Origin: Bacteroidales bacterium
GTDB lineage: Bacteria > Bacteroidota > Bacteroidia > Bacteroidales > F082
Assembly: GCA_019454985.1 (NCBI GenBank)
Contig: JACFNF010000009.1
Coordinates: 31,692-95,691, forward strand
Direction: 5' to 3'
Length of the DNA stretch: 64,000 nucleotides
Position numbers and translations under genes: made by a program. Shown piece after piece: positions 22,655 to 32,794 of this stretch (its first letter is position 1; every line of letters starts with the position of its first letter). The notes under the pieces are model-generated. The model had not been told where the DNA came from, did not search any database, and was given only the letters and a program-made list of their open reading frames with translations.

Positions 22655-24064
22655 ATGCCGTCTTACAAACCAATGCCAAAATCTGTTTTTATTTCTAAAG
22701 CCCTGCTGACTAATTTTTTCCTGCTTTTTCTGGCCCTTGGCGGGAGCGCTCAAAACATCATCTCAGGAACCATCGAAGGTTATGAGCAAAAACCGGTCAG
22801 TTTGCTTTTAGTCCGCGGCGATATGCGCTTGCCTGTTGATTCGGCAAAAACCGACAAAAATGGAAATTTTCGTTTAGAAACAAAAAGCTGGTACCAACCT
22901 GGAATGTACGAACTCAAAATCCAGGACGGCTTTCGTATTCCGCTGATATACAACCACGAAAACATCCGGTTTGTTTCAGATGCGCCCGATGAGGAGGGAG
23001 CAGTTCGGTTTATTGAATCTGATGAAAACAAAGTGTGGCATGAATACATTGTTGCAAAAACACGTACCAAAGCGCTTCAGGATGTGTTAAAACCTGTGCT
23101 TCAGCAGTATCCGCCAAAGGAGGCATTTTACCAGCAAACCGTTGAAGAGTTTAACAAGCTGCAAAACAGCCTCAAGCGGAAAGCCGACTCGCTTTACCAC
23201 CATCGTTCTGAATTGCTTTCCGCACGTTTCATCCGGGCCGATGCGCCGGCAATCGTCAATCTAGGCCTTGACTTTGAACAACAACGTGCTGATTTGCTTG
23301 CTCATTTTTTCGATCAATGCGATTTTGCCGACACCACACTCATTGCTTCCGACATTCTCAGCCGGAAAATGATTGATTTTCTGGCGCTTCACCAGACGCC
23401 CCAGATGGACATCCACGAGATTCAGGCAGCTTTCATCCGTGGTTTAGATGTGATTTTGGAAAAAGCTTCTGTCGAAAATAAAACCTACCTCTTCGTTCTT
23501 TCCTATTTTATTGATGGTTTTGCACGCATGGGTCTTACGGCAATCACCGATTACCTGAGTACCTTACCCCATCTGAACAGCGACTGTCTCGACCTTTCGA
23601 CTTCGATGGAAATTGAGCGGGTTGCTGGACCTCATCGCCGCATCATCACCGGGTCGGCGGCGCCCGAGCTTCTGCCGGAAACCATCAATGGAGAGCCATT
23701 CTCTCTCGAACACTTTCGTGGAAAGCTGAAAATCCTTGTCTTTTGGTCGGTAAACTGCCAACACTGCCTCAAAATGCTACCCGAGCTAAAAAAGCTGTCT
23801 GTGAAATTCCCCGAGCTTCAAATCATTTCGTTTGTGATTAGCAACGACCGGCCGAAACTTGACGAGATCATCCAAAACGAACATCTCGACTGGATTCACC
23901 TGAGCGATGGATTGATATGGGAAAGCCCTGTAGTTCAGTCTTATATGGTTTACGGCACTCCTACCCTTTTCCTTTTGGATGAAGAAAATCATATCATGGC
24001 AAAGCCTGTTTCTATTGAAGAAACCCAATCATTGCTCGAACAGTATTTTCATTCGGAAAAATAA
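22655..24064 (+). CDS. TlpA-like thiol:disulfide oxidoreductase with N-terminal DUF4369-like domain
   Basis: Start at MPSYKPMPKSVFISKALLTNFFLLFLALGGSAQ. The N-terminal beta domain is IISGTIEGYEQKPVSLLLV...DKNGNFRLE. The C-terminal thioredoxin fold is KILVFWSVNCQHCLKMLPELKKL (CxxC). Confidence 0.75.
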   Translation: MPSYKPMPKSVFISKALLTNFFLLFLALGGSAQNIISGTIEGYEQKPVSLLLVRGDMRLPVDSAKTDKNGNFRLETKSWYQPGMYELKIQDGFRIPLIYNHENIRFVSDAPDEEGAVRFIESDENKVWHEYIVAKTRTKALQDVLKPVLQQYPPKEAFYQQTVEEFNKLQNSLKRKADSLYHHRSELLSARFIRADAPAIVNLGLDFEQQRADLLAHFFDQCDFADTTLIASDILSRKMIDFLALHQTPQMDIHEIQAAFIRGLDVILEKASVENKTYLFVLSYFIDGFARMGLTAITDYLSTLPHLNSDCLDLSTSMEIERVAGPHRRIITGSAAPELLPETINGEPFSLEHFRGKLKILVFWSVNCQHCLKMLPELKKLSVKFPELQIISFVISNDRPKLDEIIQNEHLDWIHLSDGLIWESPVVQSYMVYGTPTLFLLDEENHIMAKPVSIEETQSLLEQYFHSEK

Positions 24065-24083
24065 ACACCAAGCACAAGATATT

Positions 24084-25892
24084 ATGAAAATCAGGTCATT
24101 CACTTCGACAATTCGCCAATTTATTCTTTCTGTAATCCTCATTTTTGCCGCAGGTAATTCTTTTGCACAAGATTTAGCTGCATCCCGATGGGTTGACTCT
24201 GTTTACCAGCAACTGAGCCTCGACGAACGCATTGCACAACTGATGATCGTGAGAGCCAACCAGCCCGACAAGCCGTATCGCACCGACATTGCTGAACTGA
24301 TTGAACACTACAACATTGGTGGAGTTTGCTTCTTTAAAGGTGCGCCCAAGTCGCAGGTTTACCAATCCAACAAATGGCAGCAAAAAGCACGCACCCCGCT
24401 TTTCATCAGCATTGATGCCGAATGGGGTTTGGCCATGCGTTTGGGTCAGACCGTGACGTACCCTTATCAGATGAGCCTTGGTGCCATTCAAAACGATGAA
24501 CAGATTTACGAGATGGGGCGCCAGATTGGAGAGCAGTGCAAACGCATGGGCATTCACATCAATTTTGCTCCGGTGGCCGACGTCAACAGCAATCCCGATA
24601 ATCCTGTCATTGGGATGAGGAGTTTCGGCAATATTCCGGAGATGGTTGGAAAAAAAGCATTAGCCTATGCCCGTGGTCTTCAGGATATGGGCATCATCAC
24701 CACAGCCAAACATTTTCCGGGGCATGGCGACACCCAGAACGACTCACATTACACCCTCCCCATTCTCAATCATAACCGGGCTCATTTTGATTCTATCGAG
24801 CTCAAGCCATTCAAATATCTGATTCAGAACGGGATTCAAGGGGTGATGACGGCTCATCTGCACGTTCCTGCGCTCGACGACTCAAAGAGCCTGCCTTCAT
24901 GCCTCTCGCCCAAAATTGTTACCGGGATTTTAAAAAACGAATTGGGCTTCTCCGGACTGATCGTCACCGACGGGCTCGACATGAAAGGAGTCACCTCAGT
25001 TCAGCCTTCGGGAAAGATTGAGTTGATGGCCCTTCAGGCCGGAAACGACATTCTGTTATTGCCCGAAAACGTGCCTTTGGCCATTTCTACCATCAAAGTA
25101 GCGCTCGAAAATGGTGAACTTGACCCTGCACGAATCGAAGAAAGTTGCAAGAAAGTGCTGATGTTCAAATACAAGGCCGGCCTCAACCAATATCGCCCAG
25201 CCCTGATCGAAAACTTAGAAAACGATCTAAACCGACCCGAATACAACGATTTGGTTCAAACACTCTACAACTATGCCATCACTGTGCTTCGTAATCAGGA
25301 ATCCGTTCTGCCGCTTCAGTCCGGCTCGGGCGAGTGGGCGCTGGTTTCCATTGGTAAAAAAGCTGAAAACATAGACGTGTTGGAAAACAAATTCCCCGGA
25401 TTAAAATCGTTCACTCTGCTGCACAATGCTGACAAAGCCGCTGTGGAGCTTCTGAAAGAGCAATTGAAACCCTACAAAAACGTAATTGTAGACATACGAA
25501 AAACCCACCTGCTGACCAATAAAAACTATGGCATTAGTGAGACAAGTATTACCTTTGTCAATCAACTTTCAAAAGACAAAAGACTGGTTTTCAACCTATT
25601 TGCTGCACCTTACGCCTTAGATTTTTTTAAGATTAACGACAATTTCGCTGCAATTCTCATCGGATATCAGGACACTCCCGAGGCAGTAAAGGCGCTTCGG
25701 CAAGTTCTTGTCGGACGTGTGTCGCCCACAGGCAAGCTCCCGGTGAGCCTCAAAAGTGGATTTGAAGCCGGCGAAGGCCTAAGTTTTGAGCCGGTCAGAG
25801 GCGAGAAAAAAGGTGTTTCAGAACCTGTATTTCAACCCCAAATTACGGGGGAAGGCGAACAAACCTCCGACAATTTTTTTTTCGGCAGATAG
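24084..25892 (+). CDS. glycoside hydrolase family 3 N-terminal domain protein (NagZ-like beta-N-acetylhexosaminidase); 5' part of a frameshifted fusion gene
   Basis: Start at MKIRSFTSTIRQFILSVILIFAAGNSFAQ (signal peptide). GH3 motifs are present: RIAQLMIV, SIDAEWG, NFAPVADV, KHFPGHGDT..DSH and the nucleophile region IVTDGLDM. The reading frame ends just after a T9 run. Confidence 0.8.
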   Translation: MKIRSFTSTIRQFILSVILIFAAGNSFAQDLAASRWVDSVYQQLSLDERIAQLMIVRANQPDKPYRTDIAELIEHYNIGGVCFFKGAPKSQVYQSNKWQQKARTPLFISIDAEWGLAMRLGQTVTYPYQMSLGAIQNDEQIYEMGRQIGEQCKRMGIHINFAPVADVNSNPDNPVIGMRSFGNIPEMVGKKALAYARGLQDMGIITTAKHFPGHGDTQNDSHYTLPILNHNRAHFDSIELKPFKYLIQNGIQGVMTAHLHVPALDDSKSLPSCLSPKIVTGILKNELGFSGLIVTDGLDMKGVTSVQPSGKIELMALQAGNDILLLPENVPLAISTIKVALENGELDPARIEESCKKVLMFKYKAGLNQYRPALIENLENDLNRPEYNDLVQTLYNYAITVLRNQESVLPLQSGSGEWALVSIGKKAENIDVLENKFPGLKSFTLLHNADKAAVELLKEQLKPYKNVIVDIRKTHLLTNKNYGISETSITFVNQLSKDKRLVFNLFAAPYALDFFKINDNFAAILIGYQDTPEAVKALRQVLVGRVSPTGKLPVSLKSGFEAGEGLSFEPVRGEKKGVSEPVFQPQITGEGEQTSDNFFFGR

Positions 25893-27046
25893 ATTCAATT
25901 GCCCTTGACGGGATAAAGAAAAAAGCCTACCCCGGCTGCCAAATTGTAGCCATCTACAACGGAAAAACCATTTATCAGAAATCGTTGGGTTTTCTGACCT
26001 ACGACAGTCTTGAACCAGTGACCGACCAAACTCTTTATGATCTTGCCAGCCTCACCAAGATTTTAGCGACAACATTAGCTGTCATGAAGTTGTATGACGA
26101 TTCATTACTTTTCATGAGTCAAACCCTTGGTGATTTTCTTCCTTTCCTCAAAAAAACCGACAAAGGCCTTCTCCGCATCTACGACATCCTGACCCACCAG
26201 TCGGGATTGGACGGTTGGATTCCATTTTACCAGAAGACCCTTCGCAATGGCCAACCTGATACTTCGATTTACCATACCCGAGCCGATCCCGACTATCCCT
26301 GGCGAGTTGCAGAAAACCTCTACCTCAACAAAAAATATCGCTTCAACATTTTTGGGCAGATTGCTTCGAGCAAACTCAAAAAGAAAGAATACCGTTACAG
26401 CGACTTGGGTTTTATATTGTTTCCTACCATCATCGAACTGTTGACCAATCAGCCCTTCGACGATTATGTGGCGGACAATTTCTATCGGCCTTTGCAATTG
26501 GAAAGATTGATGTTTCAACCTTTGAAACGATTCCCAAAAGGCAACATTGCACCGACTGAAAACGACAAGGAGTTTCGGATGCAGCTTTTACGCGGCGATG
26601 TTCACGACCCTGCTGCAGCCATGCTTGGTGGCGTATCGGGGCATGCCGGCCTTTTTGGCAATGCAGAGTCGGTGGCACGCATCATGCAGTTTTTACTCGA
26701 CCATGGCGAGGTCAACGGGAAGAGACTCATTCAGCCTGAGACCATTGACTTTTTCACTAAAAGCCACTTTAAAAACAACCATCGTGGACTTGGATTCGAC
26801 AAGCCGCCCCTCGACACTGCTGAAAACAACCGTGCCATGGCTAAAAGTGCTTCGGCTAAAAGCTTTGGCCATACCGGCTTCACCGGAACTTTTGCATGGG
26901 CCGACCCCGAAAATAAACTTGTTGTCGTATTTTTGTCGAACCGTGTGTATCCCGATGCAAAAACCAATCTCCTGGCACGCCTCGGAATTCGACCGGCCAT
27001 TCACGAAGTTTTTTACCGGTATGTAGCCTCACAAAGCAAAAAATAA
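25883..27046 (+). CDS. beta-lactamase-family serine hydrolase domain; 3' part of the frameshifted fusion gene
   Basis: The track ORF starts at a TTG (25985). The same frame is open and homologous-looking from 25883 (RQIDSIALDGIKKKAYPGCQIVAIYNGKTIYQKSLGFLTYDS). It has the catalytic SxxK (DLASLTKIL), then YSD and HTGFTG motifs of class-C/AmpH-like hydrolases. Confidence 0.75.
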   Translation, partial: RQIDSIALDGIKKKAYPGCQIVAIYNGKTIYQKSLGFLTYDSLEPVTDQTLYDLASLTKILATTLAVMKLYDDSLLFMSQTLGDFLPFLKKTDKGLLRIYDILTHQSGLDGWIPFYQKTLRNGQPDTSIYHTRADPDYPWRVAENLYLNKKYRFNIFGQIASSKLKKKEYRYSDLGFILFPTIIELLTNQPFDDYVADNFYRPLQLERLMFQPLKRFPKGNIAPTENDKEFRMQLLRGDVHDPAAAMLGGVSGHAGLFGNAESVARIMQFLLDHGEVNGKRLIQPETIDFFTKSHFKNNHRGLGFDKPPLDTAENNRAMAKSASAKSFGHTGFTGTFAWADPENKLVVVFLSNRVYPDAKTNLLARLGIRPAIHEVFYRYVASQSKK

Positions 27047-29481: not shown

Positions 29482-30063
29482 CTAATTGAAGTCGGGGTTT
29501 GCAGGAAAATTGCGCCACAAATCATATTCCGGGCCCATCCGCTGGAGCAAAAGATTCCACATTTGGTGTGAGCGCGTTTTCATCAGCAGGCTGCAAGGCG
29601 CTTCCGTAACTACCCAGGTATTGCGTTTCAACTCGTTGTCAAGCTGCCCGGGGCCCCAACCTGAATGACCCAGAAAAAACCGAATCTGATCATCTTGTAC
29701 GACCCCCATATCCATCATCTCGCGAATTGTTTCCACCTCGCCTCCCCAGTATAAACCGTCCATCACCTTCACAGAGCCGGGCACTTTATCTCCGAGAGTA
29801 TGAATAAAATACACGTGGTTTGGCAAAACCGGACCACCGACATAAATCATAGAATCCATTCCAGCTTCATGCCCGAGAACCTGCTGCACACTGATTCCTG
29901 CCAGTTTGTTCATCACAAGGCCTAATGTTCCCTCGTCGGTATGGTCAATCAACAACACAACAGAGCGACCAAACCAAAATTCGTCCATCAAAGGCTCAGC
30001 CAACAAAACCCTTCCCGACGCAGGCTTGAGGTCGTTGCTTTTTATTCGAATCAGTTTTTCCAT
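29482..30063 (-). CDS. YqgE/AlgH-family protein (UPF0301)
   Basis: 193 aa. Contains GRVLLAEPLMDEFWFGRSVVLLIDH..EGTLGLVMNK, VYVGGPV and GHSGWGPGQLDNE. Confidence 0.85.
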   Translation of the reverse strand: MEKLIRIKSNDLKPASGRVLLAEPLMDEFWFGRSVVLLIDHTDEGTLGLVMNKLAGISVQQVLGHEAGMDSMIYVGGPVLPNHVYFIHTLGDKVPGSVKVMDGLYWGGEVETIREMMDMGVVQDDQIRFFLGHSGWGPGQLDNELKRNTWVVTEAPCSLLMKTRSHQMWNLLLQRMGPEYDLWRNFPANPDFN

Positions 30064-30141: not shown

Positions 30142-31512
30142 TTGAAACGCTCTCGAAACCAACTACTTTACGAAAAACTCCGAAACGAATTTCCGTTTTT
30201 CGAATATCAAAGTTACCACTTTTGGGAAGATGATGTGCATTTTCACCTGAATTTCTCTTTCAACCTCGCCGGAAAATTCACCTTTAAACCTGAAATGCGA
30301 ATCCCCAAAAGAGACTTTCTGAGCTCGGCCAACAAAACGGAAGCGCTCAACTGGCTTGCTTTTCATATTGGGATGGTGGAATTGGTGAGTTATTGGAAAT
30401 TAGCCTGTCCGCCGCGGGTGTTGATTCGACCGTTTTCACTCGACCGTAATCAACTCAACTGGTGGAAGAAACTCTATTACAACGGTTTAGGTGAATTTTT
30501 TTATGTGAATGGCATCACGGCAAATCTTGCCGATTTCATGGAGATCAGCTGTGATTCTGACGCATGCGGAAAACCCTGGGAAGGAAAGCCAAACCCATCG
30601 TTGACACTTGTTCCAATTGGAGGAGGGAAAGACTCGGCAGTCACTCTAGATTTGATTTCAAAAAGCGGAATGCCTACCCTGCCTTTCATCGTCAACCCGC
30701 GAAAGGCCATTCTCGACACCCTTCATATTGCCGGTTTTAATGAGGAAGAAGTTGTGATCGTACATCGCAGCCTTGACCCATTGATGCTCCGATTGAATTC
30801 TGAAGGTTTCCTGAATGGCCACACCCCCTTTTCAGCTCTGCTTGCTTTTACTACCGCTTTTACTGCCCTGCTTGCCGATAGCGGTCTGATTGCTCTTTCC
30901 AACGAGTCGAGCGCCAACGAACCCACCGTCATCGGACAAAACATCAACCATCAATACAGTAAATCATTAGAGTTTGAGGACGATTTTCGGGAATACATGA
31001 ATCATTATTTGCTGAAAAACAGCACTTATTTCAGTTTTCTCAGACCTTTGAGCGAGTTACAGATTGCGGCTATATTTAGTCGCCTCGAAGCCTATCATCC
31101 ATTTTTCCGAAGCTGCAATGTGGGAAGCAAAACCGATAGCTGGTGCAACAACTGTCCTAAATGCCTTTTTACCTTTTTAATGCTGCGAACATTCCTTCCT
31201 CACGATAAGGTAATTGGCATTTTTGGCGAAGACCTTTTAGAAGAGTCAAGTTTGCAAAGCGTGATGGACAAGCTACTCGGCAAAACTGAAGCCAAACCTT
31301 TTGAATGTGTCGGCACAGTGGACGAGGTAGAACTGGCATCAAAAATCATTGCAAAGCAGTTTGGATCGAAAAAACCCTTGTTGCTGCGTGCCATTGATGA
31401 TTCAATATCCAATCCTGAAACCCGTTTGAAATCGGCACTTCATCAATGGGGCGAAAACCGTATTCCTAACGAAAAACTCGCAAAACTGCTTCGCGATGCC
31501 CTCGATGACTGA
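30142..31512 (+). CDS. PP-loop (adenine-nucleotide alpha-hydrolase-like) protein with C-terminal Cys motif; candidate MurL (UDP-MurNAc-L-Ala-L-Glu epimerase)
   Basis: 456 aa, TTG start in the ORF track. Has a PP-loop-like VPIGGGKDSAV, and a downstream SCNVGSKTDSWCNNCPKCLFTF Cys cluster reminiscent of QueC-type Zn sites. Its stop overlaps the start of a MurD-family ligase by 17 nt. Confidence 0.45.
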   Translation: MKRSRNQLLYEKLRNEFPFFEYQSYHFWEDDVHFHLNFSFNLAGKFTFKPEMRIPKRDFLSSANKTEALNWLAFHIGMVELVSYWKLACPPRVLIRPFSLDRNQLNWWKKLYYNGLGEFFYVNGITANLADFMEISCDSDACGKPWEGKPNPSLTLVPIGGGKDSAVTLDLISKSGMPTLPFIVNPRKAILDTLHIAGFNEEEVVIVHRSLDPLMLRLNSEGFLNGHTPFSALLAFTTAFTALLADSGLIALSNESSANEPTVIGQNINHQYSKSLEFEDDFREYMNHYLLKNSTYFSFLRPLSELQIAAIFSRLEAYHPFFRSCNVGSKTDSWCNNCPKCLFTFLMLRTFLPHDKVIGIFGEDLLEESSLQSVMDKLLGKTEAKPFECVGTVDEVELASKIIAKQFGSKKPLLLRAIDDSISNPETRLKSALHQWGENRIPNEKLAKLLRDALDD

Positions 31513-32794
31513 CCATATTGTTGTTCAACTGAAAGGGAAAAAAATCCTCATTCTGGGTTTTGGTCGCGAAGGACAGTCCACCCTACGTTTCCTGTGTCGT
31601 CATCTGCCGAAGGCTCAAATCACCATTGCCGATGCTGCTTTGCCAGGCAAAGACCATTCGATTCCTGAAAATATTCGTACCCTGTTTGGATCTCACTATT
31701 TGGACGGGCTCAGCGAAGCTGAACTGATCATTAAAACACCGGGCATTCCCACACGTTTGCTCCAGCTGAGGCCAGGACAACAGTTGAGGTCACAAACCGA
31801 CCTGTTTCTGAGCGCTTTTCGTCATCAAACCATTGGTGTTACAGGCACAAAAGGCAAGAGTACAACTTCGGCTCTGATATATCATCTGCTCTCTCAGGCC
31901 GGAAAGCCGGTTGTGTTGACGGGTAACATCGGCACGCCCTGCTTAGACAGCATCGAACAAATTACACCTGAAACCACAGTAGTATTCGAGCTTTCGGCCA
32001 ATCAATTAGAAAACGTCCGTCATTCACCAGGCGTTGCTGTTTTACTCAATATCTTTGAAGAGCATCTTGACCATTTCGGCAGTATGGATACCTATCGTCA
32101 GGCCAAACTCAACATTTTACGTTTTTGTATGCCCGGCGATACCGCAATCGTTCATCGCACGCTCCAGTCGGTTATCCCTCCAATCGGCGGACAAGTTCAT
32201 TTTTTCCCTGAACCAGCATTCCACCTGCCTTCTTTGCCAGTTCTACGCGGAGAACACAACCGCTCAAATGCCCAGGCTGCAATTCTGGCGGCTATGGCAA
32301 CAGGTTTTCAAGAGCAAGAGCTTATCCCACTCCTCAACAGCTTCAAAGGACTTCCGCATCGTTTGGAATACCTTGGACTGAAGGCAGGCGTTCATTTTTA
32401 CAACGACAGCATTGCTACAATTCCCGAGGCCACAGTGGCAGCATTAGAAACCCTTGGCAAAGTTAATTTTCTGATTCTCGGAGGTTTCGACCGCGGAATT
32501 CACTACGAATTGCTGGCAAACTATCTCCTTGAACATCCGGTTGATCATCTGCTTTTTACCGGTCAGGCAGGCCAACGTATTGCCTCCTTGCTAAGCATAA
32601 CACCAGGCATAATGCATCTCCATTTTTTCGAGGAATTGAAAGAGGCTTTTGAGATAATTTCCCAAAACTGTCATGTGGGAGATATATGTTTGCTCAGTCC
32701 CGCAGCCGCTAGCTATGACCGTTACAAGAATTTTGAGCAACGCGGTGATCTTTTCCGAAGCCTGACAGAAACTTTCAGCAACAAAACATCCTGA
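31496..32794 (+). CDS. Mur ligase family, UDP-N-acetylmuramoyl-L-alanine:glutamate ligase (MurD-like; candidate MurD2)
   Basis: 432 aa. Has the N-terminal Rossmann KILILGFGREGQS, P-loop GVTGTKGKSTT, NIFEEHLDHFGS, GEHNRSNAQAA, GLPHRLEY, NDSIAT and LSPAAASYDRYKNFEQRGDLF. It is not embedded in a dcw (mraY/ftsW/murG) cluster. Confidence 0.7.
   Translation: MPSMTDHIVVQLKGKKILILGFGREGQSTLRFLCRHLPKAQITIADAALPGKDHSIPENIRTLFGSHYLDGLSEAELIIKTPGIPTRLLQLRPGQQLRSQTDLFLSAFRHQTIGVTGTKGKSTTSALIYHLLSQAGKPVVLTGNIGTPCLDSIEQITPETTVVFELSANQLENVRHSPGVAVLLNIFEEHLDHFGSMDTYRQAKLNILRFCMPGDTAIVHRTLQSVIPPIGGQVHFFPEPAFHLPSLPVLRGEHNRSNAQAAILAAMATGFQEQELIPLLNSFKGLPHRLEYLGLKAGVHFYNDSIATIPEATVAALETLGKVNFLILGGFDRGIHYELLANYLLEHPVDHLLFTGQAGQRIASLLSITPGIMHLHFFEELKEAFEIISQNCHVGDICLLSPAAASYDRYKNFEQRGDLFRSLTETFSNKTS

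Follow-up and report, generated by a model that had tools for sequence, protein, structure and literature searches.

A MurL homologue and a MurD2-type ligase encoded by overlapping genes in a Bacteroidales genome: a probable alternative route of D-glutamate into peptidoglycan

In the MurL-MurD2 system, and to our knowledge in no other, the D-glutamate residue of peptidoglycan arises once glutamate has been ligated, through an epimerase that consumes ATP and works in one direction. We have analysed a pair of overlapping genes that probably codes for such a route in a Bacteroidales bacterium, on a stretch of 64,000 nucleotides (positions 31,692 to 95,691 of contig JACFNF010000009.1, assembly GCA_019454985.1, forward strand; hereafter called the window). 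Reported in 2017, the system has since been reviewed (PMC8788868, PMC5808125). According to these reviews, no domains can be recognised in the epimerase MurL, which requires one ATP, releases AMP and acts in the L-to-D direction only; it has been proposed to adenylate the alpha-carboxylate of its substrate. The organisms in which the pathway was studied have genomes devoid of murI and dat (PMC8788868). In the published distributions, the pathway is listed for Gamma- and Alphaproteobacteria as well as rare actinobacteria, and there are weak matches from cyanobacteria, one fungus and one amoeba; Bacteroidota are not named there (PMC8788868, PMC5808125). A literature search on MurL or MurD2 in Bacteroidetes, or on the fold of MurL, returned nothing beyond these two reviews from the Dairi group. 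MurL-MurD2 is already named in Pfam, NCBIfam and KEGG/JGI, and what is new in the window is the host clade, the pathway itself being known.

The two genes of the window code for members of the same two protein families as MurL and MurD2 of Xanthomonas oryzae and, like the latter, they are located outside a dcw cluster. As a stand-in for X. oryzae, we used the annotated murL/MurD2 pair of Xanthomonas sacchari, taken from a record wrongly filed as a plasmid, as the Xanthomonas reference. There, as in the window, the murL gene precedes that of the ligase, with an overlap of 20 nucleotides (nt) as compared with 17 nt in the window, and the window proteins are approximately 32% (MurL) and 30% (ligase) identical to their Xanthomonas counterparts. 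The murL-like open reading frame (ORF) codes for 456 residues from a TTG start codon and the ligase ORF for 432 residues from an ATG; an earlier, sequence-only reading of the window had given the coordinates of both and the 17-nt overlap correctly (Table 1). If translation of the ligase starts at an alternative in-frame ATG at position 31505, the overlap is reduced to 8 nt (ATGACTGA), which is the commonest junction among related loci. The overlap suggests that translation of the two genes is coupled.

Several lines of evidence identify the predicted product of the upstream gene as a MurL homologue, as the sequence-only reading had surmised. It matches the NCBIfam model NF041275 (MurL) over its full length (residues 19-448 aligned with positions 9-442 of the 447 of the model, E 2.4e-73, 247 bits). 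A protein 99% identical to it (P0001) has precomputed annotations for the Pfam families PF26299 (MurL_N) and PF26298 (MurL_epimerase_C), and several close homologues are labelled 'UDP-N-acetyl-alpha-D-muramoyl-L-alanyl-L-glutamate epimerase' by JGI. Our own Pfam scan of the 456-residue protein, performed with a library that lacks the newer MurL families, yielded DUF6395 alone, below the threshold. In a BLASTP comparison with the X. sacchari murL product as annotated by the Prokaryotic Genome Annotation Pipeline (PGAP), the identity is 32% over 379 residues (E 5e-58), and the two proteins have in common the invariant motifs GGGKDS, NGH.P, SNE.SA, NHQ.SK, LRPLSEL, SCN, WC..CPKC and KPFECVG.

Two of the motifs of this protein had been singled out from the sequence, namely IGGGKDS as a PP-loop and SCNVGSKTDSWCNNCPKC as a QueC-like Cys cluster. 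Both are present, and structure prediction agrees with their interpretation. The AlphaFold2 model of MurL, calculated from an alignment of 119 homologues, has a predicted local distance difference test score (pLDDT) of 93.6 and a predicted template modelling score (pTM) of 0.92. Its best matches in the PDB, as determined with Foldseek, are QatC (of the QatABCD defence system, 9y01), QueC (7-cyano-7-deazaguanine synthase, 3bl5) and Cap9 (of CBASS, 9nto), followed by TtuA, ThiI, NMN synthetase and argininosuccinate synthase; except for scattered NAD(P)-Rossmann proteins, such as UDP-galactose 4-epimerase at rank 13, the matches are AMP-forming enzymes of the PP-loop type. QatC comes first (E 1.3e-4), with a full-length template modelling (TM) score of just 0.37-0.39. 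The matches to QueC and Cap9 both have a probability of 1.00, with moderate TM scores of 0.60 and 0.63, respectively, normalised to these small chains. When a MurL sequence profile was used, its vPvGGGkDS segment aligned with the PP-loop of TtuA (SGGKDS, E 0.0017) and with that of MnmA, both matches being weak. With the MurL sequence alone as the query, phmmer gave no match in the PDB at E values up to 1, which indicates that no MurL structure has been solved.

Conservation points to the same two sites. P158 and G160 to S165 are invariant in the 119 homologues, and GGGKDS, which Xanthomonas MurL retains, is conserved at 95% or more in 148 diverse representatives. Similarly, C325, C335, C338 and C341 (Cx9Cx2Cx2C) are invariant in the 119 homologues, conserved at 95% or more in the 148 representatives and present in X. 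sacchari MurL. By its model and motifs, MurL is a probable PP-loop ATP pyrophosphatase, and the structural matches place it closest to QueC-like members of this superfamily. QueC, QatC and Cap9 each activate a carboxylate and form AMP. MurL has the PP-loop ATP-binding motif in common with them, and its C-terminal Cys4 motif, seen here in the sequence, resembles the Cys cluster of QueC; it is a putative zinc site. In contrast, MurL shows no similarity to these proteins that phmmer could detect, has additional N- and C-terminal domains and acts on another substrate. Furthermore, its adenylate is proposed to be resolved by epimerisation and hydrolysis, whereas those of QueC, QatC and Cap9 lead to amide or nitrile formation. 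The invariant C389 of the KPFECVG motif is a candidate catalytic base; H227, H270 and K274 are invariant as well. The fold and motifs of MurL thus fit an AMP-forming, carboxylate-adenylating enzyme, and the suggestion that such a fold suits an ATP-dependent epimerase is in line with the model, the profile and the published adenylation proposal.

The predicted product of the downstream gene is a MurD-family ligase that carries the MurD2 signature. All the MurD hallmarks that had been read from the sequence (GVTGTKGKSTT, HLDHFGS, GEHNRSNAQAA, GLPHRLEY and SPAAASYDRYKNFEQRGDLF) are located in it. It passes the curated TIGR01087 MurD model (304 bits for a cutoff of 212), its Pfam domains are MurD-like_N, Mur_ligase_M and Mur_ligase_C, and its best PDB matches are MurD proteins; the three-domain Mur ligase fold and the ATP P-loop are common to it and the canonical MurD of dcw clusters. 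TIGR01087 does not tell MurD2 from canonical MurD, the MurD2 of Xanthomonas being annotated as murD too. In X. oryzae MurD2, Glu197 and Arg358, equivalent to Asp182 and Lys348 of Escherichia coli MurD, control stereospecificity, the E197D/R358K double mutant being a D-Glu ligase, and the K319T substitution in E. coli MurD confers acceptance of L-Glu (PMC8788868).

We compared these three positions, numbered as in E. coli MurD, with those of 12 canonical MurDs from dcw-type contexts, including the Bacteroidota Bacteroides finegoldii, Phocaeicola, Prevotella and Bernardetia. At position 182, both the window ligase (Glu189) and X. sacchari MurD2 have Glu, whereas the canonical proteins have Asp (nine), Ala (two) or Asn (one). 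Position 319 is Ile in the window ligase (Ile306) and in X. sacchari, and Lys in all canonical proteins except one, which has Ile; position 348 is Arg in the former two (Arg333 in the window) and Lys in 10 of the canonical proteins, with Arg in the other two. None of the 12 has the full Glu/Ile/Arg set. Nine have Asp/Lys/Lys and the others differ from it at one or two positions, the Ala and Arg cases being the two Bacilli and the lone Asn and lone Ile both belonging to Subdoligranulum. In the MurD of Streptococcus agalactiae in the PDB, the equivalent of position 182 is Thr. Wherever the aligned positions could be read in the MurL-linked ligases of related loci, they are Glu (71/71), Ile (69/69) and Arg (69/69). 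Thus, on the choice between MurD2 and canonical MurD that the earlier reading had raised, the signature sides with MurD2. Two other residues of the window ligase, Ala405 and Tyr407, differ from their X. oryzae equivalents, Pro433 and Phe435, whose mutation left stereospecificity unchanged (PMC8788868).

In a neighbour-joining bootstrap tree, the MurL-linked ligases form one clade (99%), apart from the canonical MurDs of Bacteroidota (100%). The window ligase differs from canonical MurD in its location outside a dcw cluster, in its Glu/Ile/Arg residues in place of Asp/Lys/Lys and in its separate clade. Its location had been noted before, and the scan of window ORFs of at least 150 codons revealed no dcw genes; specifically, mraY, ftsW, murG, murI and D-amino-acid aminotransferase genes were not found among them. 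Database names for this clade are inconsistent, as NCBI calls close homologues D-glutamate ligase and JGI calls some of the same clusters L-glutamate ligase (naming seen in P0136, P0147, P0188, P0194, P0391, P0402 and L085 7136-8572). For the MurL-linked ligases, the name used by NCBI is probably a misannotation that has been applied systematically. Among plasmid-collection sequences, the best match to the window ligase (E 2e-48) is the MurD of Subdoligranulum variabile (L092), which has a mixed Asn/Ile/Lys set at positions 182, 319 and 348 and whose record contains no MurL.

Table 1. Features of the murL-ligase locus, in window coordinates
Feature	Coordinates	Strand	Evidence
MurL homologue	30142..31512	+	NF041275; Pfam MurL domains; BLASTP with X. 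sacchari murL; AlphaFold2 model
PP-loop motif P158-I-G-G-G-K-D-S165, predicted ATP pyrophosphatase/adenylation site	30613..30636	+	Conservation; TtuA alignment
Cys cluster C325-x9-C335-x2-C338-x2-C341, QueC-like putative zinc site	31114..31164	+	Invariance; QueC-like fold matches
murL/ligase overlap, 17 nt (8 nt from ATG 31505)	31496..31512	+	Related loci mostly 8 or 4 nt
MurD2-type ligase	31496..32794	+	TIGR01087; Pfam domains; Glu/Ile/Arg signature; tree clade
Mur ligase ATP-binding P-loop G117-T-K-G-K-S-T123	31844..31864	+	Motif scan; single Mur ligase P-loop in the window
Glu189 codon (E. coli MurD Asp182, X. oryzae MurD2 Glu197), stereospecificity determinant	32060..32062	+	Alignments
Ile306 codon (E. 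coli MurD Lys319)	32411..32413	+	Alignments
Arg333 codon (E. coli MurD Lys348, X. oryzae MurD2 Arg358), stereospecificity determinant	32492..32494	+	Alignments
YqgE/AlgH (DUF179) gene, divergent from murL	29482..30063	-	NCBIfam YqgE/AlgH match

To determine how far the pair is conserved, we scanned a single genome from each GTDB species. The scan yielded at least 600 stretches that encode MurL, of which the best 80 were analysed as related loci. Almost all of these belong to metagenome-assembled genomes (MAGs) of Bacteroidales, Lentimicrobiaceae or Marinilabiliales. A MurD-like gene is located directly downstream of murL on the same strand in 75 of the 80 loci, mostly with 8-nt or 4-nt overlaps, and this recurrence shows that the pairing is not a chance juxtaposition. 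The co-conservation on which the earlier proposal depended is thus present and is complemented by protein fusions (see below). Of the five exceptions, one locus stops at a contig edge and the other four have unrelated genes after murL. The latter (L062, L068, L071 and L072, from rumen and gut Bacteroidales) have somewhat shorter murL genes, of 420-456 codons as called and approximately 420-430 once apparent N-terminal over-extensions are trimmed; their partner ligase may be encoded elsewhere, possibly in the dcw cluster. In a search for MurD2-type ligases inside dcw clusters, two shorter homologues were sampled, and both again lay next to MurL.

An exhaustive search of 1.84 billion representatives yielded 2,628 members of the MurL family at E values up to 1e-3, counted as representatives at 50% identity. 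Single-chain fusions with a ligase account for 43 of the 150 best representatives, 40 of them in the order MurL-MurD and three with the ligase first. The MurL-MurD fusions have lengths of 871-1083 residues, as exemplified by the 871-residue cluster of P0273. The fusion clusters other than singletons, three in number, recur at identical lengths across many independent assemblies, which indicates that the fusions are real. Other architectures include MurB-MurL (791 residues), a MurC/E-type ligase followed by MurL (932 residues) and MurL-MurD-M20 peptidase (1247 residues, in many assemblies); the fusions are represented by P0241, P0245, P0273, P0325 and P0353. By their predicted domains, the MurB-MurL and MurC/E-type-MurL fusions tie the MurL family to precursor synthesis.

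Taken together, these data argue that the pair is an operon for an alternative route of D-glutamate into the peptidoglycan precursor, a reading to which we assign a probability of roughly 0.85. In this route, the MurD2-type ligase would use ATP to join L-glutamate, rather than D-glutamate, to UDP-MurNAc-L-Ala. MurL, as a predicted QueC-like PP-loop enzyme, would then spend one ATP to adenylate the alpha-carboxylate of the terminal L-Glu. Adenylation would acidify the alpha-proton and make the terminal Glu invertible, and the epimerised product would rejoin the normal pathway at MurE. In the canonical route, free glutamate is inverted; in the route predicted here, inversion would follow ligation, with the nucleotide-peptide as the substrate and an additional ATP consumed. 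The substrates of both enzymes are predicted from their sequences, and the adenylate of MurL is a putative intermediate, in the literature as well as here. MurL-MurD2 may be the organism's sole source of D-Glu for the cell wall.

Several observations weigh against this reading. The characterised MurL-MurD2 systems all lie outside Bacteroidota. With NF041275, the window MurL scores 247 bits, well short of the 700 bits of the equivalog cutoff; this model (MurL_Xanthmoales) covers Xanthomonadales only, with a cutoff tuned to that one order, so a score below it says little about function in another phylum. The identity of the window ligase to Xanthomonas MurD2 (~30-32%) is no higher than that to canonical MurDs (29-34%). 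In the tree, which contained one proteobacterial MurD2, that of X. sacchari, the clade of MurL-linked ligases is placed beside this protein, but an exclusive union of the two has a bootstrap value of just 31.5%, and a Leptospira MurD intrudes; the orthology of the ligase is thus based on its signature residues and its linkage to murL, not on the tree. Finally, in four of the 80 loci, the DNA within approximately 2-10 kb of murL is devoid of a ligase gene, and adjacency of the two genes is therefore not obligatory.

There are two other explanations. The ligase might be an ordinary D-glutamate-adding MurD that happens to lie outside a dcw cluster, with the MurL-like protein adenylating some other carboxylate, as QueC, QatC and Cap9 do. 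The closest folds are indeed those of QueC-like enzymes with other substrates, the ligase passes the MurD model, NCBI names its close homologues D-glutamate ligase, and MurL-family genes without an adjacent ligase occur on Pseudonocardia plasmids and in the four Bacteroidales loci. We nevertheless consider this explanation very improbable. The TIGR01087 match does not discriminate, given that Xanthomonas MurD2 is also annotated as murD, and the predicted coupling, the fusions and the full-length homology of MurL all argue for the same two-step chemistry as in Xanthomonas. In addition, the ligase lacks the Asp/Lys/Lys set of 9 of the 12 canonical MurDs and has that of MurD2, including both residues shown by mutagenesis to determine the use of L-Glu (PMC8788868).

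The other explanation accepts that the pair is functional and makes it redundant or conditional, beside a canonical dcw-encoded MurD and MurI or a D-amino-acid aminotransferase. That the MurL-linked ligases form a lineage distinct from the vertically inherited MurD of Bacteroidota is compatible with a gene that was added rather than one that replaced another, and genes in the vicinity for a GH3 NagZ-like protein and a beta-lactamase-fold protein hint at a connection with cell-wall turnover. However, MurDs of the TIGR01087 type are normally encoded by single-copy genes, and the wide, vertical-looking conservation of the pair in Bacteroidales, with stable synteny, resembles that of housekeeping genes. 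In the organisms studied so far, moreover, the pathway goes along with the absence of murI and dat (PMC8788868). In the 1.47 Mb of DNA flanking MurL genes, we found neither the MurI motifs DSGxGG and GCTH[YF]P nor, in any locus, a second Mur-ligase P-loop, results that are uninformative about whole genomes. On balance, redundancy is unlikely, albeit less so than an ordinary MurD, and an operon for the post-ligation route remains the reading that we prefer.

The window has a G+C content of ~45% and contains genes typical of Bacteroidota, including those for TonB-dependent receptors, a type IX secretion system (T9SS) sorting domain, HU, fmt and uvrA; a scan for tRNA genes found none in it. The window matches Logan metagenome contigs of 55-79 kb and is fully syntenic with Lentimicrobiaceae MAGs, in which MurL is 71% (L001) and 60% (L005) identical to that of the window; its source is accordingly an uncultured, Lentimicrobiaceae-like member of the Bacteroidales. 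The divergent YqgE/AlgH (DUF179) gene is a frequent neighbour: 69 of the 80 loci have it, at a distance of 57-301 nt upstream of murL. These include three of the four loci in which no ligase gene adjoins murL, the three being those that were checked. In contrast to the window, the Xanthomonas locus has no DUF179 neighbour, and none was found at four loci labelled Firmicutes. A divergent promoter region shared by the DUF179 and murL genes, and a functional link between them, are possible.

Genes for a GH3 NagZ-like beta-N-acetylhexosaminidase and a beta-lactamase-fold protein (PBP4B/AmpH-like) adjoin each other at 23979-25892 (+) and 25985-27046 (+), ~3-6 kb upstream of murL. Genes of these types are found within 10 kb of murL in 19 of the 80 loci. 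Among more distantly related Bacteroidales, the two form a single fused gene (~982 codons; L099 3009-5960, L100/L101 3039-5987) that still adjoins the DUF179-MurL-MurD genes. These neighbours hint that peptidoglycan turnover is connected to the murL locus.

The four Firmicutes-labelled loci (L055, L059, L063 and L077) come from MAGs assigned to Lachnospiraceae, Enterocloster and Lachnoclostridium and contain the MurL-MurD pair, with G+C contents of 41-55%. That they are mis-binned Bacteroidales contigs is unlikely, as they lack the DUF179 gene, three of the four differ in G+C content from the window and L055, L059 and L063, the three included in the ligase tree, form a subclade of their own. 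The MurL-MurD2 pathway is thus probably also present in some Clostridia. MurL-family genes whose products have ~28-32% identity also occur on Pseudonocardia plasmids (pLS1-1, L086 4995-6404, and two others), among hypothetical genes, and no Mur ligase is annotated at the pLS1-1 locus, the one examined. These plasmid-encoded proteins may be paralogues with a different substrate. Many of the PLSDB 'plasmids' that carry murD and dcw genes (NZ_CP010410.1, NC_022111.1, NZ_OY725928.1 and others) are evidently chromosome fragments or whole chromosomes, as in the case of records of 508 kb from X. sacchari and 1.77 Mb from Prevotella.

As the system itself has been known since 2017, the window is a matter of the correct annotation of a known system, not of a new one; the less described aspect is the wide spread of MurL-MurD2 in Bacteroidales. 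MurL/MurD2 has been advocated as a target for narrow-spectrum antibiotics, with the argument that few genera, such as Xanthomonas, Stenotrophomonas and Micromonospora, possess it. As seen here, the family is much larger, with 2,628 representatives and at least 600 species-level genomes, mostly of Bacteroidales from guts, rumens, digesters and sediments. With MurL common in Bacteroidales, inhibitors might hit many commensals. With the predicted QueC-like PP-loop fold and its Cys4 cluster, the proposed adenylation gains a structural basis that can be tested, and the natural MurL-MurD fusions are convenient single-chain constructs for biochemistry.

A broader claim, to which we would give even odds, is that a very large group of uncultured anaerobic Bacteroidales (Lentimicrobiaceae, Marinilabiliales and rumen and gut lineages) and some Lachnospiraceae have entirely replaced MurI and canonical MurD by MurL and MurD2, often fused, with MurL being a zinc-containing, QueC-like adenylating enzyme. 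If so, the fusions would suggest a direct hand-over of the L-Glu intermediate, and MurL, whose mechanism has lacked an explanation, would gain a concrete catalytic scaffold. Epimerisation after ligation would then be a major, rather than a marginal, route to peptidoglycan.

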